Shown in pieces: positions 22,995-58,083 of a stretch of 64,000 bases of DNA. The position numbers and the translations under genes were made by a program. The notes beneath the pieces are model-generated. The model was not told where the DNA came from. It searched no databases and worked only from the letters and a program-made list of their open reading frames with translations. The stretch spans positions 2,336,001-2,400,000 of the forward strand of contig OY968796.1 of assembly GCA_963695545.1 (NCBI GenBank), read 5' to 3'. Each line of letters begins with the position of its first letter. Within the stretch, counting starts at the first letter, position 1. The stretch comes from Terriglobia bacterium (GTDB lineage Bacteria; Acidobacteriota; Terriglobia; Acidiferrales; UBA7541).

Positions 22995-23381
22995 GGGGGT
23001 ACACCCCCGGTATGTATTGGGTAACGACGTCGTAATAAAGAACTTCCAGAAGACGAGTGACGGAGCAGTGCGTAATTGATTGAAAACAAAAGGGTTCCAG
23101 TGATTTTGATATCCATTATTTCGCGGGGGCGCGCACTGCTTTGCAGCGGTGCGCATGAACCCGAAAATGAAAAAGTTGTGGGGGCGTGACAGCTTGGAGT
23201 TTTGGCGTTGCCATGGCCGCAGAGTCGACGCTCGTGCGCGGCGGATGAACGCGGACAGGGGCAGGCAAGAGACCGCCGCACGCAGAGGGCGGGGCCGAAA
23301 GTTATTCGAATTGGAAGGAGCGAACACGTAAGACGGCATCAGATCGGACCGGAGCTGTCGATCACTAAATGATTATTCAAA
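22995..23381. repeat. Dispersed non-coding element, copy A
   Basis: Left end ACCCCCGGTATGTATTG; internal TAATTGATTGAAAACAAAAGGGTT; right end TTCGAATTGG..GAACACG..TGTCGATCACTAAATGATTATTCAAA aligns to copy B. Confidence 0.7.
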
Positions 23382-23474
23382 GAAAAGGAGTCGGCGGAGA
23401 CGGGCATTACGAATCGCCGTGGCTGAGATGAACGAGCCGGATTGGCCGGTGCATTCGCAAGAGGCCGCGGGCGC

Positions 23475-23507
23475 AAAAAAAAGGAGGCGGCCCGATGGGC
23501 CGCCTCC
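23475..23507 (-). terminator. Intrinsic terminator of the TonB-dependent receptor gene
   Basis: GGAGGCGGCCC-atc-GGGCCGCCTCC then T8 on the minus strand. Confidence 0.9.
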
Positions 23508-23532
23508 GGTTGCCGAGAGCTTCGGTTAGAAG

Positions 23533-26500
23533 TTAGAACTCAAGAGACGCCTTCAGCTGAAGGATCCGAGCTGAAGCGTTCGCGCCAAGGAACGAACCAA
23601 AGGTACTAGTAGGCGACGAGACCGTGTTCAAGATTTGTCCGAATTCCGAATCGTCCACGTTTGCGTCGGGAGTATCGAAGTTCGGATGGTTGAAGACGTT
23701 GTAAGCGTTGGCGGCGAGCCCGATGCGCGCACCTTCCCATCGCGGCAGGGGGATGTACTTAGTGAGAGAAAAGTCGGCATCGAAGAAGTTAGGCCCACGG
23801 AGGGAGTTGCGCCCGGCGTTGCCAAACCCGCTCGTGGAACCGGTGTAATCGGCGGTGTTGATGCACGGCGAGTCGACGTTATTGCCGGGTCCGGAGCAAG
23901 CCGCGGAGCCGTGACTTCCGAGGAGAGTGGCGAAGATCGTTCCGCCGTAGCCGTTGTAGCTCAGCGCGCCGCTCTCGGTAAGGTCAACGGGAGTAAAAGG
24001 CAGACCGGAATGAACGAAGAACGTACCGGAAACCTGCCAACCGCCAACCACAGACTTTGCACGGCCGCCTGTCAGCTTGGCAAACGGCAGCTCCCAAACA
24101 TAGTTGGCCTTCAGATAGTGCCGGACGTCGTAGTCGGAATCGCCATAATTCGCCTTGATATCGAATGGGTTTTGCGGGTAATACGGAGACTCATTCGTCG
24201 CATAGGAAAACGGCAAGAAACCACCGTTGGAGATGTCATCCATCGCATGGCTCCAAGTATAGGCGATCTGCACTTCGCCAGAGGAATACCTGTGTGTGAA
24301 CGTCGCGCTCAAGCCGTTGTAATTGGAGACGCCCTCGGTGAAAACGCCGGTGACTTCTAGGAACTCAGGATCCGGCGGGGCCTCCGGCAAGCCGGCGAAG
24401 CCGTCGGCGTACCCGTTCAACCCGTTGTCGCTGATGGGCTCGTGAATGCCATGGTTCCCATCGTACTCAACGGCGAGTGAAGTGTTCGGTCCGAAGCGGT
24501 GCTCAACTTCGAGGTTCCACTTCTGATATTGCGGGATCTTCGTGCGGGCTTGCGTATAGGTGAGGTTGGGTGGCGCGAAAGCAGGCACCGCATCGGCAAT
24601 TTCGTTGGCCGATTCGCCCGCAGAGAATCCGGTAAGGAAGCCGGCATTCGACGCCGCTTCATCGGCAAACAGATTTGTGGTCGCGGGGACGCAACTGGAG
24701 CCGCCAGAGCCCCCAGACCCACAAGTTCCGGCGGTGGATTGCGCGGGAGAGAGGTAGTCTCCGAAGACCTCAAATTCCTGGAGCAAGGGCGGATTCGAGG
24801 CGATCTCCTCGGTGATTTGACCGGGGAAAGGATCGTTGAAAATACCGATCCCGCCGCGGATGATCGTGTGGGATCTGTCGCCGAGTGGTTCCCACGCGAA
24901 TCCCACTCGAGGCTGCCATTCAAGACCTTGGAGCCCGGAAAGAGCATCTCGATAGTTGCCGGTCAACACGGAATTGTACGGTGTGTCGCCGCTGCTTAAG
25001 TCCGGATTTGTGACGAGCTCCTCAAAGTCCTCGTTCAGACGCGCAAAGCAGTCATCTTTACACGTAGGGTTCGACTCGTGATCGACGCGGAGCGACAATG
25101 TCAGTGTGAAGTCAGGCTTCAACTGGATGTCATCCTCGGCGTAGCCTCCCATGCCCCAGAACTTAAAGCGCTGTTCGGGACTCTGCGGAAAAGCCTGGAT
25201 CATGATCGAAAGATTATCAATCTCTCCTGCCGAGGTTTCCTCGACAGGGTCCGCCGCATCGACGCCCCCATTGTAAAACGCGTCCGTGTCCAAGGCTTCT
25301 TCCAAGCCGTGGGTGTAAACGCCAAAACCGGAATCGGACGAGTAGTTCGTGCGCCATTTCGCCCCGAATCTAAATGTTTGCCGTCCGATGCTCTTTGAAT
25401 AGTCATCGGATATCTGGGCCTGCGTGACGTTCCTGCCTTCGGGCCAAGCGTAAGCGTCGGCATCGATCTGCGAAAACAGGCCGTTAGCGTAATACATGGA
25501 GGTTGGGAACGCCGACAACGCCGCGCTGGGATTCGCGAAATTGAACGGCGCCTCATACCAACTGCTGGAAACGAGAAATTGGTTGACTGCCGAGGGACCG
25601 AAAGTATGCGTTTCGTTCAGTTGGCCTTGAAACTCCGGCTGATTGCTGACCGCGTTAAAGGCCGAGTCGATAGGATCTGTGTAGGTGGCCTGCAATCCGT
25701 GGTCTTCCTGCCATCGGGCGAACAACGTGTCCTTGCTGCCCAGGTTGTAATCGATGCGCAGGGCGTAGATCTTCTCGTGCGTCGGGCTGCTGACATTCGT
25801 GTAGAACGAACCGGAGCAAGCCACGGTGCTGCCCAGACCGGTCCCATCGGTGGCGGCCCAGTTCCCGCACGACTCAAAGTTGCTCTCGCCGGGAGGCGGG
25901 AAGGTTGCGCGGCTGGCGCCAGGGGCGTTGTTGTAAAGATTGAACATCGTGTTGTAGTACGGAACCGAATCAGACAAACCCTGCGATTCCAAGTTCGCAA
26001 TCGTATCGGTTTCAAATGCCTTCGTCGGAACGAGAACTTGCTCGCTGCTGGGGATGATCAGGAAGAGGCCCTCGGTGTCGAAATAGAAGAAGAGTTTGTT
26101 CTTTACGATGGGTCCGCCAATGTCGGCGCCATATTGGTTGGCATTGATGAATGATTTCGGGGTGCCCGAATTATCATCGAACCAGGTGTTGGCATCCAAT
26201 GCGCTCCCGTTCCAAAAGTAATTCGCCTTCCCGTGAAATTGGTTGCTCCCCGACCTGGTGACGTAGTTCACATTGGAGCCCGCCGCTCCGCCGAATGCAC
26301 CGCCGTAGCTGCTGGTGGTTACGGTGACTTCCTGCACTTCGTTGAGGCCGAGGGAAAGATTCGTCGCGCCGGAATTGTTCAGGTTCAGATAGGGATCGTT
26401 GTCGTCCATGCCATCGAGAGTGAACAGGTTGCTGGTGGCCGAGATACCGTTGGCCGAAAAGTTTCCGTAGCCACCCTCGGTGTTCATCACGGTCCCAGTA

Positions 26501-26991
26501 GCCATTTGCGCCGCATAGGTAATGTCGTTGCCCGGATTAGGCGTCTGCTGAACTTGTGACTGTGTCAGATCCGACGCGGAACTGGTGTCCCGAACGTCCA
26601 GGGTAATGGCTGTCTCGCTCACTTCGACGGTCTCGGATGCTGCTCCGACCTCCAACTGAAACCTGATGTTGGACGTGCTTCCTACCTGGACTTCGACCTT
26701 CCCGATCATGCTGTGGAAATTGGGCGTACTCACCCTGACGAGATAAGATCCGGGCTTGAGCAATGGAAACAGGAAGCTCCCGAGCGAGTTCGTGTGCGCG
26801 GGCTGCTGGGTCTCACCGGTTGCAACGTTTTCGATCGTAACCCGAGCGTTTGGCACCGCAGCCCCGGTTGTGTCCGTGACGGACCCGCTGACGCCGCCGC
26901 TCACGGTGTTCTGGGCGCGAATTACGGCCGGAATCGCTATTAGCAGGGCCAAGCATGCAAGAATCGCGTAGAAAGATCGAATTTTCGTCAT
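23533..26991 (-). CDS. Oar-type TonB-dependent outer-membrane receptor with N-terminal carboxypeptidase-regulatory-like domain
   Basis: Signal peptide MTKIRSFYAILACLALLI, SGSVTDTTGAAVPNA, VTRSGSNQFHG, NQYGADIGGPIVKNKLFF, C-terminal LKASLEF; GGAGGG RBS. Confidence 0.9.
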   Translation of the reverse strand: MTKIRSFYAILACLALLIAIPAVIRAQNTVSGGVSGSVTDTTGAAVPNARVTIENVATGETQQPAHTNSLGSFLFPLLKPGSYLVRVSTPNFHSMIGKVEVQVGSTSNIRFQLEVGAASETVEVSETAITLDVRDTSSASDLTQSQVQQTPNPGNDITYAAQMATGTVMNTEGGYGNFSANGISATSNLFTLDGMDDNDPYLNLNNSGATNLSLGLNEVQEVTVTTSSYGGAFGGAAGSNVNYVTRSGSNQFHGKANYFWNGSALDANTWFDDNSGTPKSFINANQYGADIGGPIVKNKLFFYFDTEGLFLIIPSSEQVLVPTKAFETDTIANLESQGLSDSVPYYNTMFNLYNNAPGASRATFPPPGESNFESCGNWAATDGTGLGSTVACSGSFYTNVSSPTHEKIYALRIDYNLGSKDTLFARWQEDHGLQATYTDPIDSAFNAVSNQPEFQGQLNETHTFGPSAVNQFLVSSSWYEAPFNFANPSAALSAFPTSMYYANGLFSQIDADAYAWPEGRNVTQAQISDDYSKSIGRQTFRFGAKWRTNYSSDSGFGVYTHGLEEALDTDAFYNGGVDAADPVEETSAGEIDNLSIMIQAFPQSPEQRFKFWGMGGYAEDDIQLKPDFTLTLSLRVDHESNPTCKDDCFARLNEDFEELVTNPDLSSGDTPYNSVLTGNYRDALSGLQGLEWQPRVGFAWEPLGDRSHTIIRGGIGIFNDPFPGQITEEIASNPPLLQEFEVFGDYLSPAQSTAGTCGSGGSGGSSCVPATTNLFADEAASNAGFLTGFSAGESANEIADAVPAFAPPNLTYTQARTKIPQYQKWNLEVEHRFGPNTSLAVEYDGNHGIHEPISDNGLNGYADGFAGLPEAPPDPEFLEVTGVFTEGVSNYNGLSATFTHRYSSGEVQIAYTWSHAMDDISNGGFLPFSYATNESPYYPQNPFDIKANYGDSDYDVRHYLKANYVWELPFAKLTGGRAKSVVGGWQVSGTFFVHSGLPFTPVDLTESGALSYNGYGGTIFATLLGSHGSAACSGPGNNVDSPCINTADYTGSTSGFGNAGRNSLRGPNFFDADFSLTKYIPLPRWEGARIGLAANAYNVFNHPNFDTPDANVDDSEFGQILNTVSSPTSTFGSFLGANASARILQLKASLEF

Positions 26992-27187
26992 TAGCGTTCC
27001 CTCCCCGCACGGGTGATGGAAATGGTTTGTCAAATCAATAGGCCCGCCACAAGACATTTGCTAAACGTCCTCGCGTATGTGTCTAAAATTTGGGTGGTTC
27101 TACCACGATCGCACCGGATGCAACCCGGCATCCGCAATACCCGTCTCCGGTCCCCACTCAGGGCCGGGCCAATATGGTCCGACATTA

Positions 27188-27203
27188 TGCACAATACGTG
27201 CCA
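27188..27203 (-). promoter_or_regulatory. Putative sigma54 (-24/-12) promoter of the receptor gene
   Basis: Minus strand TGGCACGTATTGTGCA (GG-N10-GC), ~200 nt upstream of the ATG. Confidence 0.65.
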
Positions 27204-27440
27204 AATCGGCACCACTTTTGGCGAAATAAGTCCTGTGTTTTTATATCGTTTTGAGACGGCTTGTGCAATACGAAATTAGGTCAGAGTTTCCATACCTAAA
27301 ACAATATGAGAGCTACAGTTTTACGGATGATTTCACCGAGACGGACGGAAAACGGGGTCGCCGCCGGGCAGTATCGGGTAAGCGAGTAACTTGCGGAGGA
27401 CGCGGGCACCCGCGAGCGGGTGCGGTCCTGACCGATCGAT

Positions 27441-28151
27441 TTACTCAATTCGATCGGCGTGGAGCAGGTCTCCGCGAACGCTCACTTCGATGGATATGGG
27501 CGGCCGCAAGCCACCACCCTGGACAATGGCCCCGCGAATCCAGGCTCCGTCGGAGCGCTGACCCATCCTCAATGGATCGAAGACCGTTTGGGTGCATGGG
27601 TCAACAACCATGGGATGGCTCGCGGAGAAGCCGTACTGACTGGCCAGGACACTGAGATCGGTTACATAGAGGAGCTGGCACGTGCCGAAGGGCTCGGCGA
27701 GCGAGAAGGCCCAATAGGAGCTGCTTTTGTCAGGCGAGGATCCCGGCAGCCGCACGACCATGGAGGGCACGCCCTCGTGCGTCAGGGGGTGAACGAACAT
27801 GAATGGCTTTGAGGACCAGGGCTTGGCTAGTTCTTCGAGGGAGCCAATTTGGCCGGGATCGCCTGACGGCGCCGGCTTTTGAGGGACAGGCGGGGCTGGA
27901 GAAGACACATCTTCGAGATTCGCGGCTGCAGCAGGCGCGACAACGGCCCCGGCTCGCGCGTGGAGGTGATGGCGAATTCCGAGGGCCAGCCCCGCGACGA
28001 GCAGCACTCCTGCGACTGCAGCCAGAGCGGCTGCGGCCCCCTTTGAGATGTTTAGGCGAGACCAAGAACCGCCGCCGCGGCCCGAGCTGACTCCCGGAAT
28101 GCTCGGCATCTGGGCTTGGAAGCGATCGGCGCTGGGGGGCGATTGAGCCAT
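27441..28151 (-). CDS. Membrane-anchored protein with degenerate Rieske-like domain
   Basis: One TM helix, Pro/Ala linker, AFSLAEPFGTC...VVDPCTQTVFDP...GAIVQGGGLRPP. Confidence 0.7.
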   Translation of the reverse strand: MAQSPPSADRFQAQMPSIPGVSSGRGGGSWSRLNISKGAAAALAAVAGVLLVAGLALGIRHHLHARAGAVVAPAAAANLEDVSSPAPPVPQKPAPSGDPGQIGSLEELAKPWSSKPFMFVHPLTHEGVPSMVVRLPGSSPDKSSSYWAFSLAEPFGTCQLLYVTDLSVLASQYGFSASHPMVVDPCTQTVFDPLRMGQRSDGAWIRGAIVQGGGLRPPISIEVSVRGDLLHADRIE

Positions 28152-28156
28152 CGAAG

Positions 28157-28552
28157 TCAATACTTCCTCATGTGGATTTCCGTGCCGCCACGTTCGTAGG
28201 TTACCTCATCCATCAGCCGATGAATGAGGAAGACTCCGCGGCCGTGCTCAGAATGTACATTGTCTTTAAGAGTCGGGTCCGGGAGACGCGTGGGATCAAA
28301 ACCCGCGCCCGGGTCGCGCACCACGATCAAGATCCCGCCGGCATCGTTGAAGTCCACGCCACATTCGACGGATTTGGTTGGATCTCCATGGCAGCCGTGC
28401 AGGATCGCGTTGGCCAGCGCCTCGCGCACGGCCATCTCGATCTCGAATTCTTTGCCAGAGGCTCGGCCGGAGCGGCGCACGAGTTGGAGGACGGAGTCGA
28501 CCGCGCGGGATATCGCGGAGATTTCAGCGGGGAGTGAGGTTTCAAATTGCAT
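28157..28552 (-). CDS. RsbW-like anti-sigma factor / HATPase_c_2 ATP-binding protein
   Basis: EALANAILHG, DPGAGFDP, GRGVFLIHRLMD. Confidence 0.88.
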   Translation of the reverse strand: MQFETSLPAEISAISRAVDSVLQLVRRSGRASGKEFEIEMAVREALANAILHGCHGDPTKSVECGVDFNDAGGILIVVRDPGAGFDPTRLPDPTLKDNVHSEHGRGVFLIHRLMDEVTYERGGTEIHMRKY

Positions 28553-28572
28553 GCGAGTGTCCGAGACTAGAG

Positions 28573-28926: not shown

Positions 28927-29297
28927 GACACACCCCCGCCAGTGGCAGGTGAGATTGCACGAAAGTCGCCACTAGGCGAAGACGCCGAGGCGACTGCAAA
29001 TGCAACAGTTAGGACGGCATGTCGGGCGAGTGCCAGTGGATTGCTTTCGCAATGCGGATAGAAATTAGCCGAGCTGGGAATTCCGCGAGGCAGACCGGAG
29101 TTCGACTCATGATTGCTGTGCCGTTTCGGTTCCGCCGAGGCGCGGAGTACCGACCACGAAATATTGAGCTACGAAGGGAGCGGGCTGCGCGGGTATAGGG
29201 CGGCGGGAATTCGGATTCTTCTGTTACGAAGTATCGATCGGGGGCTCGCGATCGCGCTAGGAGCCGACTGCGGGAATTTGGGCCGGATGGCTCGCTT

Positions 29298-30183: not shown

Positions 30184-33054
30184 TCAGGCCGCTTGGCCGT
30201 GACACTTCTTGTATTTTTTCCCGCTACCGCAGGGGCAGGGATCGTTGCGGCCGATTTTGGCACCGGTGCGCACTGGCTTCGGGGCTTCGGCTTGCGCGGC
30301 GCCGGCTTGATACTGCATTTGTTGCTGTTGCCTGCGCTGGCGGCGTTCGATTTCCTTGGCTTGATCCTCAGGCCGCGCGGGCTGGATCAGGAAAAGATAG
30401 CGGACAGTTTCCGCGTCGATGCGGCCCATCAACTCTTCAAACAGCGTGAATGCTTCGCGTTTGAATTCGACCAGCGGATCTTTTTGCCCGTAGCCGCGCA
30501 GGCCGATGCCTTCTTTCAGGTGATCGAGCGTGAGCAGATGGTCTTTCCATTGCGTGTCGACGCGATCGAGGATCACGCGGCGCTCGAGCCAGCGCATCAT
30601 CTCGCTTCCGAACTGCTTTTCTTTGTCCTCGTAGCGCTGCTTGACGGCGGCGACGATCGCGTCGCTCAATTCGGCATTCGTTAGCATCGTCGGATCGATG
30701 CCTACGGCCTTTAGGTCGATGCCGAATTGCGCGAGCACTTCGCCCGCGAGCGCTGTGGTGTTCCATTTTTCGGGGTGTTCGTTTGGAGGGCAGGTGTTGT
30801 TGACGATCTCCATCGCCAGTTCTTCGGCGATGCCCATGGCGTATTGCTTCTGATCTTTTCCTTCAAGCGCGGAGCGGCGAATCGAATAGATCGTTTCGCG
30901 CTGCTTGTTCATCACGTCGTCGTATTCGAGCAGGTGTTTGCGCTGCTCGAAGTTTTGCGCTTCACGCGATTCCTGCGCGGTCTCGATGCGCTTGGAAATG
31001 AGGCGTGATTCGATGGGCACTCCTTCGGTCATTCCGAGACGAAACATCAAGGCTTTGACGCGCTCGCCGCCGAAGACGCGCAGCAGATCGTCTTCGAGCG
31101 AAAGGAAAAAGCGCGAAGAACCGGGATCGCCCTGGCGGCCGGCGCGGCCGCGAAGTTGATTATCAATGCGGCGAGCTTCGTGCCGCTCGGTGCCCAGGAT
31201 GTGCAGGCCGCCGAGCGCCACGACCTCATCGTGCTCGGCGCGGCACTGCTGATTGAAATCATCGTAGAGCGGTTTCCACTGATCGAGCGGAACCTCAAAT
31301 ACTTTGCCTTCATGCTGGAACAGAACCATGTTCGGCGGCGCTACGCCGCTCGGATCGTCGGTGCCGATCACCGGCGCGGCCGAAGCGTGCGGGATGGCGA
31401 GCTTGTTCTTCAGGCAATATTCGCGCGTCATGGCTTCGGGATTGCCGCCGAGCAGGATGTCGGTGCCGCGTCCCGCCATGTTGGTGGAAACGGTCACCGA
31501 ACCCTTGCGGCCGGCTTGCGCGATCACTTTGGCTTCGCGCTCGTGCTGTTTGGCGTTGAGCACCTGATGCGGGATACCGGCTTTTTTGAGATGTTCGGCG
31601 AGCTGCTCGGATTTTTCGATCGAGATTGTGCCCAGCAGGACGGGCTGGCCCGATTCGTGGATCTGGCGCACGCCGTGCTCGTAGGTGCCGTCTTCCTGAA
31701 GGATGCCGTTGACGACGGCGGTGAACTTTTCCGCTTCTGTGCGGTACACGACGTCATGGAATTCCTGGCGGCGCAAGTCGCGGTTGGTGGGAATCACGCA
31801 GACGTCAAGGCCATAGATTTTGTGGAATTCGGCGGCCTCGGTTTCGGCCGTGCCGGTCATGCCGGAAAGCTTGCTGTACATGCGGAAATAGTTCTGGAAG
31901 GTGATGGTCGCGAGGGTTTGATTTTCGCGCTCGATCTTCACGCCTTCCTTGGCTTCGACGGCCTGATGAAGACCGTCGGACCAGCGGCGGCCGGGCATTT
32001 CGCGGCCGGTGAATTCATCCACGATGATCACTTCGCCGTTTTTGACGACGTAATCGACGTCGCGTTTGTAAAGGGTGTGCGCGCGCAGGCCCTGATAGAC
32101 GTGATGCATGGTCTCGATATTCACGGCATCGGAGAGATTGGTGATGCCGAGCAATCGCTCGCACTTGCTGAAGCCTTCTTCGGTGAGCGTCGCAGTGCGC
32201 AGCTTTTCGTCGACGGTGTAGTCGATTTCCTGAATCAGCTTGGGAATGATTTTGTCGATGCGGTAATACTTGTCGGCGGCTTCGTCCGAAGGCCCCGAAA
32301 TAATCAGCGGCGTGCGCGCTTCGTCGATCAGGATCGAATCGACTTCGTCGACGATGGCGAACCGGTGGCCGCGCTGGACGCATTGCTCGAGATCGTACTT
32401 CATGTTGTCGCGCAGATAATCGAAGCCGTACTCGTTGTTCGTGCCGTAGGTAATGTCGGCTCCGTAGGCCGCGCGGCGCTGCAGGTCGTCCAAATCGTGC
32501 ACAATCACGCCGACGGTGAGGCCGAGCGCTTTGTAAATCGGCGCCATCCATTCGGCGTCGCGGCGTGCCAGATAATCGTTCACGGTGACGATGTGCACGC
32601 CGCGCCCGGCCAGCGATTCAAGATACGCCGGCAGCGTGGCCACGAGCGTTTTGCCTTCGCCGGTTTTCATCTCGGCGATGCGCCCTTGATGCAGCACGAC
32701 TCCGCCGATCAATTGCACATCGAAGTGGCGCATTCCCAGCGTGCGACGGCCGGCCTCGCGCACCGCGGCGAAGGCCGGTTCGAGCACGAGATCGAGCGCC
32801 GCATTCACCAGCTGCTTGTACTCGAAGCTCCTGCGGTAATCAGGATCCTCGTTGGTGTCTTTTGCGAGTTCCGCCTGAACCACGGCGCGCAACTCGACCG
32901 TCTTGGCGAGCAGCTCCGCGTCGGTCAACGCCTCAAATTCGGGCGCGAGCGCGTTGATGGCGTCCACGCGCGGCTGAATTTTCTTGATGTCGCGCTCGTG
33001 CTTGGTGCCGATAAAGCGCGCGACTACGCCATCTATGATTTCTTCGACTTTCAT
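30184..33054 (-). CDS. secA: Preprotein translocase ATPase SecA
   Basis: [54 protein letters not shown]. Confidence 0.98.
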
Positions 33055-33252
33055 CGTTTCCCTGAGGTGGCTTCTCCGCGGAGCGTACGCCGTGCGCCGC
33101 TCGAAAATCGCCCGTATACAACAGAAGCAGTCCCACTGCCCCGGGACTGCTTCCGGTGAAGTCTGGACGACAAAATCATTGTACCGCGCCCGGCGCGCAG
33201 GGTGCAAAGTAGGGCGGCGGGGGTTGCTGGAGCGGAGGTGGAAATGGGATCA

Positions 33253-33561
33253 GGTATATATACCCCCGGTATATTTTGCGAAAGTGCAGTAAACAAAGGG
33301 GATGCAGGGAAAGAGTGCGGATGAGTGTGAAAAGACAGTGAGTTAAAAGTTCTTTGTTTGAATGAGTTGCGCACTCTTTTGTAATGCATTGAAAACAATG
33401 TGGTTGCGGACGGGGATAATGCGATGAATGGAGCGACGCGGTTCACTTCGGGCGTCCCGGGGAAAAGTGCGCGGGCACGACAATTCGAATTGGTGGGAGA
33501 GAACACGGAAAAAGGTAGCATAACTGTATAACAATGTCAAGTACTACTTGAGTATTCGAAA
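33253..33561. repeat. Dispersed non-coding element, copy B
   Basis: ACCCCCGGTATATTTTG left end; four AT-rich motif copies; right end TGTCAAGTACTACTTGAGTATTCGAA. Confidence 0.72.
33512..33540 (-). promoter_or_regulatory. Sigma70-type promoter inside copy B
   Basis: Minus strand TTGACA-N17-TACCTT with TG extended -10. Confidence 0.65.
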
Positions 33562-33770
33562 CAATTTCCACAGGGTGAGAAGATTCCGAAAGCCCAATGG
33601 CAAATCCAACTCGCCCGCGAGCGGCGGGGCGGGCGCGCGGGGTAGCGGGAAGGGCGTGACTCGGGCAGTCCCAGCGCCCTTGCTGTATTGCAGGGTGACA
33701 CCCGGCGCGTTCTCGTTCAGAATGAAGTGTTCGCGGCGGCGTGCGTGCCGTCGCAGGGAGAAACCGACCG

Positions 33771-34607: not shown

Positions 34608-34651
34608 ATGCCGAAGCTTCCGCGCCACTTCGTTCAAATGTTTGCCTTCAG

Positions 34652-36960: not shown

Positions 36961-36962
36961 CG

Positions 36963-43487: not shown

Positions 43488-44747
43488 CTAGCTCGGGCTC
43501 GACATAGAGGCGAGAAATTCGGCGTTGGACTTGGTCTTCACCAGCCGGCCTAGCAGCAATTCCATGGCTTCAACGGGCGAGAGCGGATTGAGCACCTTGC
43601 GCAGCACCCACACGCGATTTAGTTCGTCGGGCGGCATCAACAATTCTTCCTTGCGCGTTCCGGAGCGATTGATATCGATCGCGGGGAAAATGCGTTTATC
43701 CACCAGCCGCCGGTCGAGATTGATTTCCATGTTGCCGGTGCCCTTGAACTCTTCAAAGATCACGTCGTCCATGCGGCTGCCGGTGTCAATCAGAGCGGTC
43801 GCCATGATCGTGAGCGAGCCGCCTTCTTCGATATTGCGCGCCGCGGCAAAGAACCGGCGCGGGCGCTGCAATGCATTGGCGTCGATACCGCCCGAAAGCA
43901 CTTTGCCCGAAGGCGGCGTGACGGCGTTGTAGGCGCGCGCGAGACGCGTCACCGAATCGAGCAGAATCACCACGTCGCGTTTGTGCTCCACCAGGCGCTT
44001 GGCTTTTTCGAGGACCATTTCCGCAACTTGAATGTGACGCTGCGGCGGTTCATCGAACGTGGAGCTGATCACTTCGCCCTTCACCGTGCGCTGCATGTCC
44101 GTGACTTCTTCCGGCCGCTCGTCGATCAGCAGCACGATTAGCGCGACTTCAGGGTGATTCGTGGTGATCGAATTCGCGATGGATTGCAGCATCATGGTTT
44201 TGCCGGTGCGCGGCGGCGCGACGATCAAACCGCGCTGGCCCTTGCCCACCGGGCACAGCAAATCCAGCACGCGCCCCGTCAGCACATCCTTGCCGACTTC
44301 CATTTTCAAGCGACCTTGCGGATAAAGCGGCGTCAGATTGTCGAAGAAAATCTTATTGCGCGCGACCTCGGGATCTTCAAAGTTGATGGCTTCGACTTTG
44401 ATCAGCGCGAAATAGCGCTCGCCGTCTTTCGGCGGACGCACCTGCCCGGAGACAGTGTCGCCGGTACGCAGATCGAACTTGCGGATTTGCGACGGCGAGA
44501 CGTAGATGTCGTCGGGTCCCGGCAGATAGTTGTATTCCGGCGCGCGCAGGAAGCCGAAGCCGTCGGGCAGGCATTCGAGCACGCCTTCGGAAAAGATCAA
44601 TCCATTCTTCTCCGTTTGCGCGCGGAGGATCTGGAAGATCAGCTCCTGTTTGCGCATGCCGCTGGCGCCGGGGATCGCCAAATCCTTGGCGATCTTCGCC
44701 AGGTCGGTGATGTTTTTCTCTTTCAGTTCAGCCAGGCTAATACTCAT
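43488..44747 (-). CDS. rho: Transcription termination factor Rho
   Basis: [44 protein letters not shown]. Confidence 0.98.
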
Positions 44748-44761
44748 CGTTTTGGTTCCTT

Positions 44762-44799
44762 GTTCTTGTGGCGTTGGTTTTGGTTCTTGTGGCGTTGGT
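44762..44799. repeat. Two 17-bp direct repeats (21-bp period) immediately upstream of rho
   Basis: GTTCTTGTGGCGTTGGT at 44762 and 44783. Confidence 0.85.
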
Positions 44800-45032
44800 C
44801 TTGCGACTTCAGTTGTATTTCGCATTACACTCTTTCAAGTCGTTCCAGTCATCTCGATCTAAATCCAAATTTCGATTCCGGAGAATTCCGAGGCAATCTC
44901 GGAACGTTCCTCGCGGTCCCAGTGGGAAATTGGTCAGGCGCCCGGCGGGGCGCAATGCCTTTCGCTGCCTGATTCGTCCGAAGAAGTCCACCCTGGATGC
45001 AGCTTCGGAAAAGAGAGCGGAGGATTCTCGCC

Positions 45033-52797: not shown

Positions 52798-52810
52798 CCT
52801 CTGGCGAACT

Positions 52811-54118
52811 GTGTCCGCGCCGAATCGCGCACGAGCGCCTTCCACGTTCATCGTCCCCAGTTTGCGCTGGTGGATCATCACGCTGGTGTTTCTCGCCACG
52901 GTGATCGGCTACATCGACCGGCTAACGCTGTCGGTGCTCGCTCCGGTGATTTGCGCGGACCTGCATCTCACGAATCTTCAATACGCGACGATCAGCACGT
53001 CGTTTCTGTTTGCGTACTCGCTCAGCATGTTTCTCTTCGGCCTCGTTCAGGATCGCGTGGGCACGCGCATCGGCTTCGGCGCCGCGATGATCGTGTGGTC
53101 GCTTGCCGAACTCGGCCACGCGTTCGCGCGCGGTTTGGCGAGCCTGAGCTTTTTCCGATTCTTGCTGGGCATCGGCGAAGGGGGACATTGGCCCGCCGCG
53201 ACTAAAACGGTAGCCGAGTGGTTGCCGGCGCGCGAGCGCGCGCTCGGCATGGGCGTGGCCAATTCCGGCGCCGCACTTGGGTCGGCGATCGCTCCGCCGC
53301 TAATCGTTTGGATGCAGCTGCATTACGGATGGAAGGCCACGTTCGTAGCGACGTCCGCGCTCGGCGCTTTCTGGCTCGTGCTGTGGTTCACGACGTATGA
53401 AATTCCCAACCGGCACCGCTGGCTCGGCGGCAAAGAGCGCGCGCTGATTGAATCCGGCAGCGCGAAGGCGGATACGCGGATTCCGCAGAAAATGAGATGG
53501 GTTGAGGTTCTGCGCGACCCGAACGCGATCGGCATCGTCATCGCGCGTTTTTTCGGCGATCCCGTCTGGTGGCTGTATCTGATTTGGCTTCCGCTCTATC
53601 TGACGACGGCGCGCGGTTTCACCTTGAAAGAAATCGGCATGTACGCGTGGATTCCGTACATCGCGGCCGATCTCGGCGCGCTTTCGGGCGGCTGGATGTC
53701 GGGCCACCTTTTGCGCCGCGGCTACTCCGTGCTGATGGCGCGCGGCGCGGCAATCGTGTTGTCCGCGGCGCTCACTCCCGCCGCGCTGCTTGTTGCCGGA
53801 GCGCGCACTCCGGCCGCGGCAATTTTCTTCATCAGCGTTGTGCTCTTCGCGTTTCAATTCTGGATCGGCAATGTGCAGACGTTGCAAAGCGATCTCTTTC
53901 CGTCCGATCGCGTTGCTTCCGTTGCCGGACTTTCCGGCACATCCGCCGGCCTCGGCGCGATTCTGTTCACTCTGCGCACGGGCTGGGTCGTGGATCATTT
54001 TTCTTACGCGCCCATTCTTTTCGCTTCGGGTTTTCTTGTCCCGCTCGGTACGATCATTCTGTTTGTTTTTCTGCGAGCTTCGGGCCGCGCTTCGGCGCAA
54101 TCGCGGGCTAAAAATTGA
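52811..54118 (+). CDS. MFS transporter, ExuT-like hexuronate family
   Basis: RWWIITLVFLATVIGYIDR, RFLLGIGEG, EWLPARERA, DPVWW. Confidence 0.88.
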   Translation: MSAPNRARAPSTFIVPSLRWWIITLVFLATVIGYIDRLTLSVLAPVICADLHLTNLQYATISTSFLFAYSLSMFLFGLVQDRVGTRIGFGAAMIVWSLAELGHAFARGLASLSFFRFLLGIGEGGHWPAATKTVAEWLPARERALGMGVANSGAALGSAIAPPLIVWMQLHYGWKATFVATSALGAFWLVLWFTTYEIPNRHRWLGGKERALIESGSAKADTRIPQKMRWVEVLRDPNAIGIVIARFFGDPVWWLYLIWLPLYLTTARGFTLKEIGMYAWIPYIAADLGALSGGWMSGHLLRRGYSVLMARGAAIVLSAALTPAALLVAGARTPAAAIFFISVVLFAFQFWIGNVQTLQSDLFPSDRVASVAGLSGTSAGLGAILFTLRTGWVVDHFSYAPILFASGFLVPLGTIILFVFLRASGRASAQSRAKN

Positions 54119-54139
54119 TCGGAAGAGCAACCAAGAGGT

Positions 54140-54226
54140 TGGTGCGGAAGGAGGGATTTGAACCCCCACGACCTTTCGGCCACAGGATCCTAAGTCCTGC
54201 GCGTCTGCCAGTTCCGCCACTTCCGC
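54140..54226 (-). tRNA. tRNA-Leu(TAG)
   Basis: Reverse complement GCGGAAG...CAGGA-CT-TAG-GA-TCCTG, long variable arm, GGTTCAAATCC, CTTCCGC-ACCA. Confidence 0.96.
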
Positions 54227-54325
54227 GTTGACCGGAGTATAGCATCGCCGCCGAAAGCCGCGGCTTAGGCCGAAAACGCCGTCGGCCGAGCCGTGGGGCC
54301 GGACAGCCACTCGACGCCGTTCGGC

Positions 54326-54354
54326 TTGCGGGCGAATGGCGCATTTGGTAGCCT
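54326..54354 (+). promoter_or_regulatory. Putative sigma70-type promoter (duplicated at 55390)
   Basis: TTGCGG-N17-TAGCCT with TG extension. Confidence 0.55.
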
Positions 54355-54399
54355 TCCCGCCGTCACGACGATTTACCTCGGCCTGGAAGGAGTGTACCC

Positions 54400-55335
54400 A
54401 TGGCTATCTGCAATAAGTGCGGTGCAGGTGTTCCGGATGGACAAGCTTTCTGTTCTCACTGCGGGCAGCCAATTGCCGCGACAGCGCCCGCGCCGCAGCA
54501 GTATCAGGCCCCGCCCGCGCCGCCTCGCGTCGGGGGAGCGGCGGGGATGGGCTTGCCGGCGGCGATCGCCGCGTTGCTTACCCCGATGGGGCTCGCGCCG
54601 CTCGTTGCGACGCTGCTTTGCTGGATCGGCTGGTTTCTTTTGCCAGGGGTCAGCGTGGGCATTTCGTCGTTCATGCTGGGATCGCAGTCCACGAGCTATA
54701 CGCTGTGGGACGCTTTGGGCATTACGGGCAGCGCGATGGGTGGACTTGGCAACGGCAGCGCTGGTTTCCTGGGATTCATCGTGGTGGTTTGCCTTCTGAT
54801 TCCGTTCGGTGTCCCGTTCGTTCCCATGCCGTTCGCAAAGATCGCGCGGTTCGCTTATGGAGCGCCGCTACTTGCGTTCTTGGTCGGATGGCTCTCGATT
54901 GAACACACGGTGAGCCAGGTTACGTCGATGTTGAATTCCACATTGGTGGGCACGGGGGGCGCCGGCTTCGGAATCAATGCTTCGTGGGGCGTCGGCACCT
55001 ACCTGGTCGTGCTCGCGAGCCTTGCCGCTGCCGCATGCATCGTTCTGCCAATGTTAATGCCGAAACTCGCAGGCACAGTTGCGGCACCGGCCGCGCGCGC
55101 CGCGGCGCAAGCGCCTCCAGCGCACGCGCAGCCGCCGGCCTACGCACCTCCGGCGCAGCCCGCTTACCGTCCGCCACCGCCCGCGTATGCACCCCCAGCA
55201 CCACCGCCGGCTCATGTTGCGCCGCCGGCCGCGCCCGTCGCGAACCAGGCTACCGGATTTTGCACAAGCTGCGGAGCACCGCGCGCGCATGGATCGCAAT
55301 TCTGCACCGGCTGCGGCGCACGATTCGCGACGTAG
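54400..55335 (+). CDS. Membrane protein with N- and C-terminal zinc-ribbon motifs
   Basis: CNKCG..FCSHCG; several TM helices; Pro-rich linker; CTSCG..FCTGCG. Confidence 0.82.
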   Translation: MAICNKCGAGVPDGQAFCSHCGQPIAATAPAPQQYQAPPAPPRVGGAAGMGLPAAIAALLTPMGLAPLVATLLCWIGWFLLPGVSVGISSFMLGSQSTSYTLWDALGITGSAMGGLGNGSAGFLGFIVVVCLLIPFGVPFVPMPFAKIARFAYGAPLLAFLVGWLSIEHTVSQVTSMLNSTLVGTGGAGFGINASWGVGTYLVVLASLAAAACIVLPMLMPKLAGTVAAPAARAAAQAPPAHAQPPAYAPPAQPAYRPPPPAYAPPAPPPAHVAPPAAPVANQATGFCTSCGAPRAHGSQFCTGCGARFAT

Positions 55336-55389
55336 GCCGTCTTCCGCGCGAGCGGCGGGGCGACGCTCATTTTCTGGTCGCCGTAGCGC

Positions 55390-55418
55390 TTGCGGGTAGC
55401 GCGGGCTTTTGGTAGCCT
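55390..55418 (+). promoter_or_regulatory. Putative sigma70-type promoter (duplicate of 54326)
   Basis: TTGCGG-N17-TAGCCT with TG extension. Confidence 0.55.
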
Positions 55419-55462
55419 TCCGCCCAACTGCCGGTCCCACGGCAGCTCGAAGGAGACGCTCG

Positions 55463-56050
55463 ATGGCTTTCTGCGGCAAGTGCGGTGCAAGCAATCAAGA
55501 TGGTGTCGCCTTTTGTGCGCGTTGCGGCCAACCGCTCGCGGCGGGCCAGGCCCCGCCTCCACAGCATTACCAAGCTCCGCCGCCTCCGGCGCAATACCAG
55601 CAGCCGGGCGCGCCGCCGGCGCAGTATCAGCAGGCTCCCGCACCTGGCTCGGGTGGCACGGGCCTTGAGGAAAACGTCGCGGGCGCGCTCGCCTACGTTC
55701 TGGGCTGGGTGACGGGAATTATTTTTCTGATCATCGACAAGCGGCCCTCTGTGCGCTTCAATGCCGCGCAATCGCTGGTGGTGTTCGGCGGCGGCGGGAT
55801 CCTGGTGATCCTGATCGGGATCGTCACCGGCGGGGGCATGTTCTTCGGCGGATTCGGCGGCTTTGGCTTTGGGCCGGATATGGGTTTCCGATACATGCTG
55901 GTGATGCTCGGCATGGCTCTGAACGGGCTGCTTGAGTTGACGATGTTTGTGCTCTGGATCGTGCTGATGCTCAAAGCGTATCAACACCAGCCGTTCCGAG
56001 TTCCTATCGCCGCGGGCATCGCCGATAGCTTGGTCGGGAAGGTGGGATAG
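55463..56050 (+). CDS. Zinc-ribbon plus DUF4870-like membrane protein
   Basis: FCGKCG..FCARCG; GLEENVAGALAYVLGWVTGIIFL, VRFNAAQS. Confidence 0.85.
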   Translation: MAFCGKCGASNQDGVAFCARCGQPLAAGQAPPPQHYQAPPPPAQYQQPGAPPAQYQQAPAPGSGGTGLEENVAGALAYVLGWVTGIIFLIIDKRPSVRFNAAQSLVVFGGGGILVILIGIVTGGGMFFGGFGGFGFGPDMGFRYMLVMLGMALNGLLELTMFVLWIVLMLKAYQHQPFRVPIAAGIADSLVGKVG

Positions 56051-56248
56051 AGCCGCCTGCCGCTTTTCAATCGGTTCGCCAAACTCGTTGTGCGCCGGTG
56101 CGGTCCGCAAGTGGCGCGGAACTGCACCGGCGCGACACTCGCCTGCGGCGCTTGACTTTCCCCTTCCGGGCGTCCATCTTTTAACGCTCTTTTGTGGTTT
56201 GTCCTCCGGCATGATGCCGGAGCGGGAGTGCTGCGCGTGCCGGCTCCG

Positions 56249-57202
56249 GTGAAAGTTCGGCTCTGCTTCCATAACCACTGCTTCGACGGTGCGGCTTCGT
56301 CGGCGGTGTTCATGCGCTTCTATCGCGAGCGCATCGAGGCCAATTCCGAATTCCATTTCACGGGCATGGCGCATCGCGCCTCGGCCCTTTTTGAGGAAGG
56401 CATTTTTGATGGCGATGAAAACGCCATCGTGGATTTCAAATATTCGAGTTCGCCGCGCGTCACCTGGTGGTTCGATCACCACCAGAGCGCGTTTCTGAGT
56501 CCCGCGGACGCCGAGAATTTTCGCCAGGATCATTCCGGCCACAAGTTCTACGACCCTTCGTACAAATCCTGCACCAAGCTGATCGCCAACATCACCAGCG
56601 CGAAATTCGGTTTCAACGCCGCGCCCCTGGCGGAACTCGTGCATTGGGGCGACATTATTGATGGCGCGCAGTTCGCTTCGGCGGAAGTGGCCGTGGCCAT
56701 GCGCGAGCCCGCAACGCAACTGGCTCTGGTGATCGAAGCGGCGCCGGATCCCGAATTGCCGGCGCGGCTGATCCCGGAAATGGCTACCCGCCCGCTGGCC
56801 GAAATCGTCAAGTTGCCGTTTGTCCAGCAGCATCTGGGGCCCCTGCTTGAGCGGCATCGCCGCACCATCGAATTGCTGCGCGAGCGTTCGGAATCGCGCG
56901 GCGGCGTGATTTTCTTCGACGTGAGCGATCTCGATCTCGAGGGCTACAACAAATTTATTCCGTACTTGCTGCACCCCGAGGCGCTCTACACCGTCGGCGT
57001 CAGCGCTTCGCCGACGCGCGCCAAAATTTCGCTCGGCTCGAATCCGTGGAAAGACGAGGCGGCCGAGCAGAATCTGGCCTCGATCGCCGAAGCTCACGGC
57101 GGCGGGGGACATCCACGCGTCGCGGCGATTTCGCTCGAACCCGGCGACATCGAGCGCGCCCGCCGCGTCGCGCGAGAAATCGCCGCCGTGCTGCGCGGCT
57201 AG
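56249..57202 (+). CDS. DHH/DHHA1-family phosphoesterase
   Basis: FDG, IVDF, FDHH, GGGGHP. Confidence 0.85.
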   Translation: MKVRLCFHNHCFDGAASSAVFMRFYRERIEANSEFHFTGMAHRASALFEEGIFDGDENAIVDFKYSSSPRVTWWFDHHQSAFLSPADAENFRQDHSGHKFYDPSYKSCTKLIANITSAKFGFNAAPLAELVHWGDIIDGAQFASAEVAVAMREPATQLALVIEAAPDPELPARLIPEMATRPLAEIVKLPFVQQHLGPLLERHRRTIELLRERSESRGGVIFFDVSDLDLEGYNKFIPYLLHPEALYTVGVSASPTRAKISLGSNPWKDEAAEQNLASIAEAHGGGGHPRVAAISLEPGDIERARRVAREIAAVLRG

Positions 57203-57325
57203 GCTCGGTTTTTCTCCACGCGCCGCTGGACGTTTCGCGCGCCGCGCCGTACTCTCGGAACAGAGTTTTGCGTTCTCGGGCGCGGCGGCAACACCAATGC
57301 TCACGCTGGATGCATCTAACCTCCA

Positions 57326-57433
57326 AATACGCTCCGCGCAGATGATTAGAGCAATGCGCTCCGCGCAGACGATTAAAGCAATGCGCTCCGCGCAGACCGG
57401 TAAAGCAATGCGCTCCGCGCAGAGCGGCCGCTC
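57326..57433 (+). repeat. Four tandem 27-bp repeats
   Basis: AATRCGCTCCGCGCAGA core every 27 nt. Confidence 0.9.
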
Positions 57434-57736
57434 ATGACAACTCCTCCGAGTGAAAAGAATGTCCGCGAACGCCGCTTGAAGATTGCGCAGCCGGTGCGCA
57501 TCCGCGCGGAAGACTTCGGCGATTCGGTGCAGATGGGCGAGACGCTGAACATGACGCGCAGCGGGCTGTACGTGGTCTGCCCGGAGAGTCCTTATCACAT
57601 CGGCATGCACGTTCACTTGATCCTCGGCTATCGTACGGGCGACCCGGTGCAGCACGAATGGTTGGCAGAGGTGCTCCGGATTGAGCGCCTGGAAGACGCG
57701 CGCTGGGGCATCGCGATGAAAATTCTGCTCCGATAG
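57434..57736 (+). CDS. PilZ-domain-like protein
   Basis: RERR near the N-terminus and NMTRSG (D/NxSxxG-like) motif; beta-rich 100 aa. Confidence 0.65.
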   Translation: MTTPPSEKNVRERRLKIAQPVRIRAEDFGDSVQMGETLNMTRSGLYVVCPESPYHIGMHVHLILGYRTGDPVQHEWLAEVLRIERLEDARWGIAMKILLR

Positions 57737-57763
57737 TGGCGCCAGCAGGGCCGACGTCTGGCA

Positions 57764-58083
57764 CCCCCCTCCCCCCGGTGTTTTTTGGAAGTGTTGAATC
57801 TAAACGACTTTAAATCCTTATTCCCAGAACTGCTCATTCTAAAGGACTTTAAGTCCTTATCGGCAGAACTGCTCATTCTAGTTGACTTAAAGCCATTAAT
57901 AATGAGCGAGATGTGGGTTTGCACAAAAATCATGGAAGTGTGGATTCTAAAAGAGTTGTGGGCGCGGAGATGCAGAAATGCGCCATTTATGGGGTGTTTT
58001 GGGAGGCGTGGATGTTTGCAAATCACGCCGAATCATAGCACATTTATACTAGACGCGTCAATATAACTTTTGAGTTATTCGAA
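57764..58083. repeat. Dispersed non-coding element, copy C, with 39-bp tandem units
   Basis: CCCCCCGGTGTTTTTTG left end; units at 57788, 57827, 57866, 57935; right end CGTCAA..TTGAGTTATTCGAA. Confidence 0.75.
58032..58061 (-). promoter_or_regulatory. Sigma70-type promoter inside copy C
   Basis: Minus strand TTGACG-N18-TATGAT with TG extended -10. Confidence 0.62.

Follow-up and report, generated by a model that had tools for sequence, protein, structure and literature searches.

Repeats that carry promoters about bacterial genomes have been described more than once, and they are the closest parallels to the element considered here, a dispersed repeat found in three copies (A, B and C) in a 64,000-nt stretch of DNA from a Terriglobia bacterium ('the window'; G000:C1:2336001-2400000). 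The nearest known kinds of element are those described in the passages of PMC3184786 and PMC3575422 that deal with such repeats. The REP2 repeats of Neisseria and the IR repeats of Borrelia are dispersed and intergenic, and carry a promoter, a site for ribosome binding and an ATG, with open reading frames (ORFs) following (PMC3184786). Correia elements (CREE), also of Neisseria, are MITEs, or miniature inverted-repeat transposable elements, of ~104-157 bp with functional promoters, terminal inverted repeats being the feature that defines a MITE (PMC3184786). Like them, the putative mobile promoters are transposon-like intergenic repeats with functional promoters; both kinds are often situated 5' of genes and can overlap ORFs (PMC3575422, PMC3184786). 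MIRU (mycobacterial interspersed repetitive units), finally, are 40-100 bp long, lie inside transcription units, show ORFs, overlap the genes of a polycistron with their ends, and occur at sites that may be filled or empty (PMC3184786).

The element in the window, which we call the cassette, combines features of these with some of its own. Like REP2 and the Borrelia IR, it supplies a promoter and a translation start to whatever follows. In those repeats, as the passages present them, a ribosome-binding site precedes the ATG, whereas in the cassette the start codon coincides with the predicted start of the transcript and there is no leader before it. The cassette further places a stop-free, C-rich frame of 250-450 nt ahead of the gene and exists in about 100 copies, points on which it was compared with REP2 and the Borrelia IR by description only. 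The gene overlaps of MIRU are paralleled by the stop/start overlaps of the cassette; unlike MIRU, in the passage on which no promoter is mentioned, the cassette brings a promoter and a start codon of its own.

Correia elements generate TA target duplications and have promoters that fire outward. The cassette, by contrast, has no family-wide inverted repeats, its promoter fires inward, and translation is apparently built in. We read it, with moderate confidence, as a portable promoter with a translated leader, lying on the strand opposite to that on which the repeat was first described. Promoter-carrying dispersed repeats are already known; what appears to be new is the addition of a leaderless start and a long non-coding open frame. 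We found no such element described in the literature on mobile promoters, on acidobacterial repeats and MITEs, on leaderless starts associated with repeats, or on the Acidiferrales.

The repeat family

The genome in question, G000, is a single contig of 4.16 Mb with 60.6% G+C; G001, G002, G003 and G004 are other genomes with which it was compared. The original prediction, made from the window, described A, B and C as members of one self-contained and probably high-copy family, and proposed a genome-wide count of copies and strands. This was run as an iterated nhmmer search of G000 seeded with copy B (cut-off E<=0.01), which returned 113 matches. Full-length copies, defined as profile matches that span the left-end motif to the right end, number 82 (40 on the plus strand and 42 on the minus strand), and the co-occurrence of both ends in so many copies bears out the idea of a self-contained module. 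With blastn (E<=1e-3, same genome), A, B and C find 28, 86 and 37 matches, respectively, far more than chance would give, and almost all pairwise identities among the copies are 70-85%.

B is a typical member of the family, and A a diverged, full-length one (profile E 6.5e-36). With nhmmer, B as query matches A end to end (E 1.1e-6), and A matches B (E 1.6e-4). With the profile, C has no more in common than its right-hand ~80 bp (window 58009-58088, E 5.5e-10); its left part is that of a sister subfamily, which has about 19 loci in the genome. The three copies lie where they were placed and are homologous.

The motifs by which the family was first recognized are all real in the profile. The left-end motif belongs to (G/C)TATATACACCCCCGGTATGTTTTGCG. 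The ~23-bp AT-rich motif is TGAAAAYAAAGG, of which the profile consensus has three direct copies and one inverted. GTCRA-N-TATTCRAA, at the right end, is the reverse complement of TTCGAATA...TTGAC, and TTCGAATTGG-N7-GAACACG is the reverse complement of a GTG start plus the palindrome CAATTCGAATTG. The ends were too narrowly drawn: conservation begins about 10 nt left of the left ends first given, and continues for at least 20 nt right of the right ends, there in four subfamily-specific forms. We keep 'left end' and 'right end' in their original sense throughout; the promoter sense is the opposite strand. Searched against Rfam at the gathering threshold, the window yields only two tRNAs, and window 33150-33700, which includes copy B, yields no match at E<=10; on these searches the family has no Rfam counterpart. 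Copy B has no match in plasmid and phage collections.

The predicted promoter module and its palindromes

Read on the opposite strand, the right end has a near-consensus sigma-70 layout: TTCGAATA, an AT-rich stretch, TTGACN, 17-18 nt, and TGnTAnnnT. The element had therefore been read backwards, its right end being a predicted promoter that would fire into it on the other strand. TTGAC is present in 94 of the 101 profile matches that reach the right end (copy A is among those without it). In these 94, the -35 is TTGACA in 67; 50 have a spacer of 18 nt, 43 one of 17 nt and a single copy one of 16 nt; TGn precedes the -10, as in extended -10 promoters, in 86; and the -10 fits TAnnnT in 75. TTCGAATA lies about 20 nt upstream, past the AT-rich stretch, and often takes the form of the palindrome CTATTCGAATAG. 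A strict promoter pattern, TTGACN-N14/15-TGnTAnnnT-N5-RTG, occurs 71 times in G000 and not once in the reversed sequence. Sixty-five of these occurrences are in or near profile matches, and a TTCGAA-like sequence stands upstream of five of the other six, the sixth having none. Within the window, B and C match the strict pattern, against no match in 100 shuffles. The element is thus predicted to be a promoter-bearing dispersed repeat that fires inward, across its whole length; judged by its sequence, it has a promoter consensus inside a dispersed repeat, as the REP2 and Correia kinds do.

The promoter has a palindrome of the ATTCGAAT type on either side, near -55 and near +20. The genome contains ATTCGAAT 124 times; elements and their close surroundings account for 100 of these, and the other 24 roughly equal the number estimated by chance from composition. 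As possible operators, these palindromes may link every copy in a single regulon. A stronger form of the same idea, which the original prediction had put forward as a loading platform for a nucleoid protein, would make the palindromes and the direct and inverted TGAAAAYAAAGG motifs chiefly a binding platform for a regulator or nucleoid protein, with the promoter as one output. The concentration of ATTCGAAT in elements fits this, as do the bracketing of the promoter, the recurrence of the downstream TTCGAA in other species' copies, and the preservation of the inverted repeats as sequence, free of compensatory changes, as DNA sites would be. The two TTCGAA palindromes could equally form a hairpin in single-stranded DNA, however, no candidate binding protein was identified, and a platform alone leaves unexplained both the start codon and the constraint on the phase of the frame that follows it. 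Binding of this kind is possible as an addition to the promoter; as the chief function of the element we think it improbable.

A start codon at the predicted transcript start

Exactly 5 nt separate the -10 from an ATG or GTG (RTG) in 73 of the 82 full-length copies; in one more the gap is 6 nt. These 74 copies are the denominator of the frame counts that follow. In the listed right-end sequences the base before the RTG is mostly a pyrimidine, which makes the pair the usual start-site dinucleotide. An RTG that follows a pyrimidine 5 nt past the -10 is where RNA polymerase is expected to start, and so the mRNA would be leaderless: the sequence fits this, the transcript start itself being predicted. 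Genes of the host include cases with an extended -10 placed 6, 7, 8 or 9 nt before the start codon (16, 11, 9 and 13 cases, respectively), and none with it at 5 nt. Putative leaderless starts, then, do exist in this organism, with a slightly different spacing.

From this start codon, frame 0 is free of stops to 20 nt past the left end in 63 of the 74 copies, while frames +1 and +2 are so in five and four. Most of the remaining 11 copies stop at or just past the left end, and about six have internal stops. The frame measures 250-450 nt from the start codon to beyond the left end, and the lengths of the copies take 55 distinct values, spread over all three residue classes. The left module contains a conserved TGA/TAA motif, which on the sense strand is CATTGAAAATAAA. 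Its phase relative to the start codon is 1 in 32 copies, 2 in 40 and 0 in two, of which one is a misaligned copy and the other a broken one. The distance from the start to this motif takes 46 distinct values, among which phases 1, 2 and 0 are represented 19, 25 and 2 times (p 2.2e-6 if independent). On the plus strand, read at copy B, stops abound in every frame, so that the constraint on stops sits on the promoter-sense strand. Other species repeat the pattern. In a scan of one genome per species the promoter pattern was found at no fewer than 98 loci, mostly in metagenome-assembled genomes titled Candidatus Acidiferrales, Acidoferrum, Terriglobia or Acidobacteriota. Among the matches listed, 83 loci in other genomes with Acidobacteriota, Terriglobia or Acidiferrales titles have at least 70 codons after the start, and in these frame 0 is open for at least 70 aa in 63, frame +1 in eight and frame +2 in 12 (p 6e-16).

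The open frame does not look like a gene. Its base composition is flat across codon positions (C 0.34, 0.36, 0.33 by position), whereas the genes of this genome are strongly periodic, and its codon log-odds score is negative in every frame (-0.14, -0.15 and -0.15), compared with +0.35 for genes. A frame kept open in this way with no coding signature suggests that the conserved trait is the absence of stops, and hence the passage of ribosomes, rather than a product. One could suppose instead that the frames are real genes, whose products form a large family of small leaderless proteins (about 90-150 aa) that evolve fast. Promoter, start and open frame do recur in most copies and in other species, and a RITSSGAKDLKS-like peptide is encoded by the left-module stretch, in the same frame, in six C-type copies. 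Yet the best-conserved DNA is translated in two frames (40 copies versus 32), the N-termini switch frame within the first 10 codons, the stop is not conserved, codon periodicity and bias are missing, and the frames of A, B and C match no Pfam family. We consider a protein family very improbable.

Continuations of the frame past the left end, which reach 1287 aa, were considered as real fusions and rejected: they are mostly antisense shadow frames, and in-frame read-in is not enriched. One such shadow is a 762-aa frame at 55367-57655 (minus strand), which has no Pfam match, while the three zinc-ribbon genes opposite do match. Antisense shadow ORFs of similar length are near-universal here, some of them spanning several genes (e.g. 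31156-33159, plus strand, opposite secA), and are a trap for gene callers in this genome.

Copies A, B and C in the window

All three copies in the window keep the frame open. Their parts are as follows, copy A and its surroundings first:

22989..23385 (genome 2358989-2359385), minus strand: full extent of the profile match to copy A (E 6.5e-36, profile positions 42-362)
21931-22938, plus strand, and 23533-27057, minus strand: convergent neighbours of copy A, an alpha/beta hydrolase gene and a TonB-dependent-receptor-like gene, respectively
23003..23011, plus strand: left-end core ACCCCCGGT, inside GGGGGTACACCCCCGGTATGTATTGG
23328..23381, minus strand: degenerate promoter remnant, with TCGACA as the -35, TGCCGT at the -10 position, and TATTCAAA in place of TATTCGAA
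22659..23327, minus strand: frame from the family GTG, open for 222 codons, overlapping the hydrolase gene's 3' end in antisense; no match in Pfam

Copy B and the gene downstream:

33222..33645: copy B, the whole segment that is lacking upstream of secA in two sister species; boundaries approximate, about +/-10 nt
33253..33278, plus strand: left-end motif GGTATATATACCCCCGGTATATTTTG, with ACCCCCGGT at 33262-33270
33310-33319 and 33370-33379: arms of the internal inverted repeat AAAGAGTGCG / CGCACTCTTT, with TGAAAA-type motifs between them
33481..33492: palindrome CAATTCGAATTG, at about +13 to +26 relative to the start codon (coordinates hand-counted)
33504..33560, minus strand: predicted promoter and start, with TTCGAATA at 33553-33560, -35 TTGACA at 33535-33540, and a spacer of 17 nt ending in TGC
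33512-33517, minus strand: -10 TACCTT, followed after 5 nt by GTG at 33504-33506
33051..33506, minus strand: stop-free frame of 151 codons, whose TGA (33051-33053) overlaps the ATG of secA (33052-33054)
30184..33054, minus strand: secA, lying downstream of copy B, with a start that G003 and G004 have kept

Copy C:

57764..58098, minus strand: copy C, of the sister subfamily, with a distinct left module (about 19 loci) and the same promoter module
58024..58083, minus strand: predicted promoter and start, with TTCGAATA at 58076-58083, -35 TTGACG at 58056-58061, and a spacer of 18 nt ending in TGC
58032-58037, minus strand: -10 TATGAT, followed after 5 nt by GTG at 58024-58026
57628..58026, minus strand: stop-free frame of 132 codons; no Pfam family
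57832..57907: internal inverted and tandem repeats (GCTCATTCTAAAGGACTTTAAGTC and its partner)
57768..57784 and 58082-58098: terminal inverted pair of 17 nt, 82% complementary, in C alone and not a feature of the family

The left module of copy C (window 57800-57910) comprises two ~62-bp tandem units, with the palindrome AAGGACTTTAAGTCCTT in each.

Gene context and coupling

Gene context was taken from our own codon-usage gene caller (3154 calls), whose start calls are crude. The differing contexts noted for A, B and C (convergent, divergent and tandem genes) turn out not to be random. For 59 of the 82 full-length copies (p 8.7e-5) the left-end neighbour points away from the element, a position downstream of the promoter; for right-end neighbours the corresponding count is 46 of 82 (p 0.32). 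The downstream genes are mutually unrelated. Scanned against NCBIfam at E<=1e-15, about two thirds of 58 such genes could be named, and they include relA/spoT, fabH, thiI, gpmI, ligA, aroA, lpxD, nadE, leuC, typA, icd, msrB, an encapsulin and hpnJ, secA having been identified separately. A paralogous family of downstream genes was considered and rejected: apart from two unrelated gene pairs, the segments that these genes share are extensions encoded by the element. Our own caller lengthened ligA, gpmI, aroA, thiI and fabH N-terminally by about 100-190 aa at cassette loci. Gene callers generally will mis-annotate such loci, either as 100-aa hypothetical proteins or as N-terminally extended enzymes.

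At 53 loci the downstream gene is co-directional with the promoter, and there the frame tends to end where the gene begins. The first stop past the left end overlaps the start of the gene's frame (NTGA) in 13 of them, against eight in the two control frames (106 frame-loci), and a stop lies within 4 nt of that start in five of the 53 true frames and two of the 106 control frames. Combined, the two arrangements number 18/53 versus 10/106 (Fisher p 2.8e-4), and the true frame accounts for 13 of the 21 NTGA events (p 0.007). Copy B provides the example in the window, the TGA of its frame overlapping the ATG of secA as ATGA, and the start of secA is kept in two sister species. That the secA leader adapted after the insertion was considered and rejected, the same frame being open in G004, which is free of the element; in G003 it has one stop.

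A hairpin, GAAGCAGTCCC...GGGACTGCTTC, lies about 70-110 nt upstream of the secA start (window 33124-33160) and is kept in G000, G003 and G004. A terminator scan lists it on the minus strand; it might act as a structure that regulates secA.

Composition, Rho and RNA structure

The sense strand of the cassette is rich in C and poor in G. C exceeds G in 74 of 74 copies, with a mean C/G ratio of 1.87 and a minimum of 1.27; for genes the mean is 1.02 and the 95th percentile 1.36. Rho loads on RNA of this kind, C-rich and G-poor, and a gene for Rho is present in the window itself (43488-44825, minus strand; Rho_N, Rho_RNA_bind and ATPase domains). In the Rho-dependent attenuators of enterobacteria (e.g. 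the mgtA, tna and corA leaders), a promoter is followed by a leader ORF that gates the access of Rho to a C-rich leader, and then by the gene. The C/G ratio of the 74 copies, and the presence of Rho, give the cassette a likeness to these systems as far as can be read from the DNA. Known Rho attenuators are single-locus arrangements in which a ribosome-binding site serves a short ORF that has a defined stop, and they are not known to be repeated or mobile.

If the cassette is a portable promoter with a translated leader, its workings might be as follows. It would supply strong transcription; 70S ribosomes would start at the 5' end of the transcript and translate across the leader; their passage would shield RNA that resembles a Rho-loading site from premature termination; and they would then be handed to the downstream gene, by termination and reinitiation at ATGA or by in-frame read-in. 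The trait under selection would be the act of translation and not the peptide. Should this mechanism hold, the cassette would be the first mobile, translation-gated promoter, and its copies a natural, hundred-fold replicated experiment on how the transit of ribosomes protects transcripts from Rho.

A structured non-coding RNA, acting through its fold as a small RNA or a cis-regulatory leader, would likewise have its own promoter, and this was among the possibilities first raised for the family. Conserved inverted repeats are present and long, and they allow alternative pairings, in which one UGAAAAUAAA segment can pair with any of three UUUxUUUUCA segments. RNAalifold, however, finds no consensus structure on the left module. 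The outer helix comprises 646 Watson-Crick cells in which no pair has more than one Watson-Crick type, departures being mismatches, and no compensatory changes were seen in the conserved inverted repeats, as judged from hand-drawn helices. The antisense strand folds more stably than the sense strand in 73 of 74 copies. Nor does Rfam offer a match for copy B at E<=10, and a function in RNA alone does not predict a constraint with a period of three bases. The proposal of a non-coding RNA is thus unsupported, and we judge it scarcely probable.

Distribution and mobility

Blastn with copy B detects the repeat in four of the five other genomes searched within the genus; the 25 searched from other genera have none. 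Among the genomes surveyed, 151 in all, the strict promoter pattern was found in one taxonomic family only. Three genomes of the genus, G000, G003 and G004, have 58, 24 and 30 occurrences, respectively. Outside the genus and within the same family it is found in nine of 132 genomes, belonging to four other genera, 1-7 times each, and it is absent from 17 genomes of the order's two other families. The backward control pattern occurs in none of the 151.

Comparison of orthologous sites in relatives, a check that the original prediction had called for, shows some filled and some empty. The site upstream of secA measures 475 bp in G000; in G003 and G004, both of which lack copy B, it is down to 23 bp and 41 bp, respectively. 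Upstream of an aldo-keto reductase gene the element is present in G000 and G003 and missing in G004, and upstream of a HAD hydrolase gene it is present in G000 and missing in G004. The profile finds nothing at the secA locus of G001. In G002 the contig bearing the secA match (G002:C133, L013) ends about 20 nt upstream of it, as expected if a repeat broke the assembly. Presence and absence between sister species fit past mobility, as the suggestion of a mobile element would have it, and the spread of the cassettes lies in the past and took place inside a single family of uncultured Acidobacteriota.

Orthologous elements are far more diverged in their interiors than in their flanks, with the promoter kept. 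At the reductase locus of G003 an open frame of 112 codons ends on the same ATGA, and its peptide differs. The strict pattern has no match at three orthologous loci in sister species; a diverged promoter can be made out by eye at the reductase locus of G003 (TGCTATGAT, 6 nt, ATG), and the G004 loci are empty. The closest paralogue of copy B is 75% identical to it, compared with 81-88% in the flanks that can be aligned between species, which implies either that the source copy is not in this genome or that B is older than it appears.

A leader of ~150 nt (GAATGAAACACATCGGAATCTTGCGGGCTC...GTCTTCCGATGCCACGACGCCGGC...CAGGATTAGGACCTGG) lies upstream of the HAD-IIA hydrolase gene (L182:~1250-1390, L176:~1340-1490). 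It is highly conserved between G000 and G004 irrespective of the element, and may be a cis-regulatory RNA. The context of the start codon there is ATGA in G000, which has the element, and ATGG in G004, which does not.

Comparison of filled with empty sites places the limits of the inserted DNA a further ~35-45 nt to the left, and ~70-100 nt to the right beyond TTCGAATA, in sequence that is poorly conserved. Since the inserted DNA outreaches the conserved motifs on both sides, the recognizable ends are subterminal; the left motif is also partly palindromic. No motif common to the 82 left flanks was seen. Terminal inverted repeats, as originally reported, are not a family feature: four of 71 copies exceed the 95th percentile of their own shuffles (p 0.48), and C alone has its 17-nt pair. 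Local alignment of the left end with the reverse-complemented right flank gives a mean score of 12.1, compared with 12.2 for shuffles. No target duplication is visible in the alignments of empty and filled sites at secA, the reductase and the HAD hydrolase, where the flanks are too diverged for junctions to be fixed at base level. Copies show no replication-strand bias, 36 of 74 being co-oriented with replication.

Three elements, at genome 1200800, 1473959 and 1709319, share longer flanks on both sides (left ctgagatgagc..., right extension TTGGTGTGGGGCATAGCGAAATGATTT), and a fourth locus, at 1205303, has the right extension TTGGTGTGGGGCATAGCGAAATGATTT. These elements may be parts of a larger duplicated unit; in two cases a RAYT-like gene is 1.3 kb away.

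The REP/REPIN-RAYT systems and derivatives of IS200/IS605 lack terminal inverted repeats and target duplications and have subterminal, GC-rich, hairpin-like motifs, a combination that the cassette may share. A REPIN is shorter than the cassette by a factor of three or more. The cassette differs, too, in that the Y1 genes of this genome sit between other repeats, TnpB was not found in the genome, and no cleavage motif was identified. The genome has six matches to Y1_Tnp, with an element within 4 kb of four of them, and among them are the following:

Genome 1198842-1199456, 1475749-1476336, 1478770-1479357, 1387411-1387944 and 1424782-1425324: five intact Y1/RAYT-like genes

Three of the Y1 genes have inverted flanks of their own, of ~125 nt, and two have REP hairpins of the GTAG type (GTAGCGCCAGCCTTCAGGCTGGCG). 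An element directly adjoins just one intact Y1 gene, as a truncated copy, and one degenerate Y1 fragment. A link to the RAYTs was considered and rejected, the Y1 genes carrying repeats of their own. REP-like hairpins similar to those that flank the Y1 genes adjoin several elements.

The longer copies that were thought might enclose a recombinase or transposase were looked for in G000, and none encloses a shared gene. Reverse transcriptase (RVT_1), TnpB (PF07282, 0 matches) and IS110 are not found in the genome, and retro-mobility was rejected on the first of these. The only multicopy insertion sequence (IS) is a 1.25-kb member of the IS3 family (DDE transposase), present in nine copies that are 99.8-100% identical (genome 15537-16786 and eight others), none of them in the window. 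Its ends (TGACCAGCCC... / ...GGTCAGGTCA) look unrelated to the element by eye. One IS3-family copy adjoins a damaged element (genome 3370296-3370654).

These observations bear on the view that the cassette is purely selfish, a non-autonomous element, MITE-like or mobilized by an HUH/Y1 enzyme through its subterminal hairpins, in which the promoter and frame are relics with no role in the host. Dispersal in both orientations with no replication bias, and filled and empty sites at three orthologous genes, are what such an element would show; the subterminal position of the left motif, with an inserted tail of 35-45 nt beyond it, the want of family-wide terminal inverted repeats, and the failure to see a target duplication at B fit mobilization of the HUH type, and six Y1_Tnp genes are present. 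Those genes, however, are flanked by different repeats of their own, no TnpB, IS110 or reverse transcriptase was found in the genome, and the sole young IS has ends that look unrelated. The copies, moreover, are old, since identities of 70-85% speak against a recent burst. Relics would not hold one frame open over 46 lengths and across species, nor keep -35, spacer, extended -10 and start so uniform. We regard a purely selfish element as possible, if unlikely. It is compatible with a portable promoter and translated leader, because the family must have spread somehow.

Weighing the proposed translated leader

A number of points weigh against the portable promoter with a translated leader, and we gather them here. 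Transcription start, strand and translation are all predicted, the Rho-dependence of the leader is deduced from its composition, and of the sampled words one metatranscriptome contained a fraction of 0.04. Because the copies of a single genome are related to one another, the p-values overstate independence. The spacing of 5 nt between -10 and start is one shorter than that of the host's putative leaderless genes. The frame has no defined end, its stop coming from the flank and none being conserved. In-frame runs into the gene are not commoner in the true frame (10/53) than in the controls (19/106), and the coupling counts are soft, since the gene starts come from a crude caller. At secA, G004 has no element and nevertheless has both the ATGA and an open upstream frame. 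Finally, 23 of the 82 copies face no co-directional gene, and those of them with a detectable start still keep the frame open, while all six copies with internal stops do face a gene. This last pair of facts argues against selection solely by way of the downstream gene. The constraint on the frame may serve the cassette's own transcript (e.g. in antisense control or propagation) and not the neighbour alone.

A far-reaching extension of the portable promoter and translated leader can nevertheless be imagined. About a hundred genes in a lineage of soil Acidobacteriota, many of them housekeeping (secA, relA/spoT, ligA, typA and icd among others), would be wired to one mobile cassette; how much it yields would hinge on 70S ribosomes that translate a Rho-sensitive leader from a leaderless start; and the capacity for leaderless initiation, perhaps with one ATTCGAAT-binding regulator, would be a global switch. 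Taken as a whole this is a speculative and rather unlikely proposition. If true, it would define a new class of element, in which selection maintains the transit of ribosomes itself and neither a peptide nor an RNA fold.

Another repeat in the window

The gene for EF-Tu (tuf, 395 aa) is duplicated in this genome, as a 1207-bp repeat, 99.7% identical, at window 1799-3005 (plus strand) and at genome 696556-697762.

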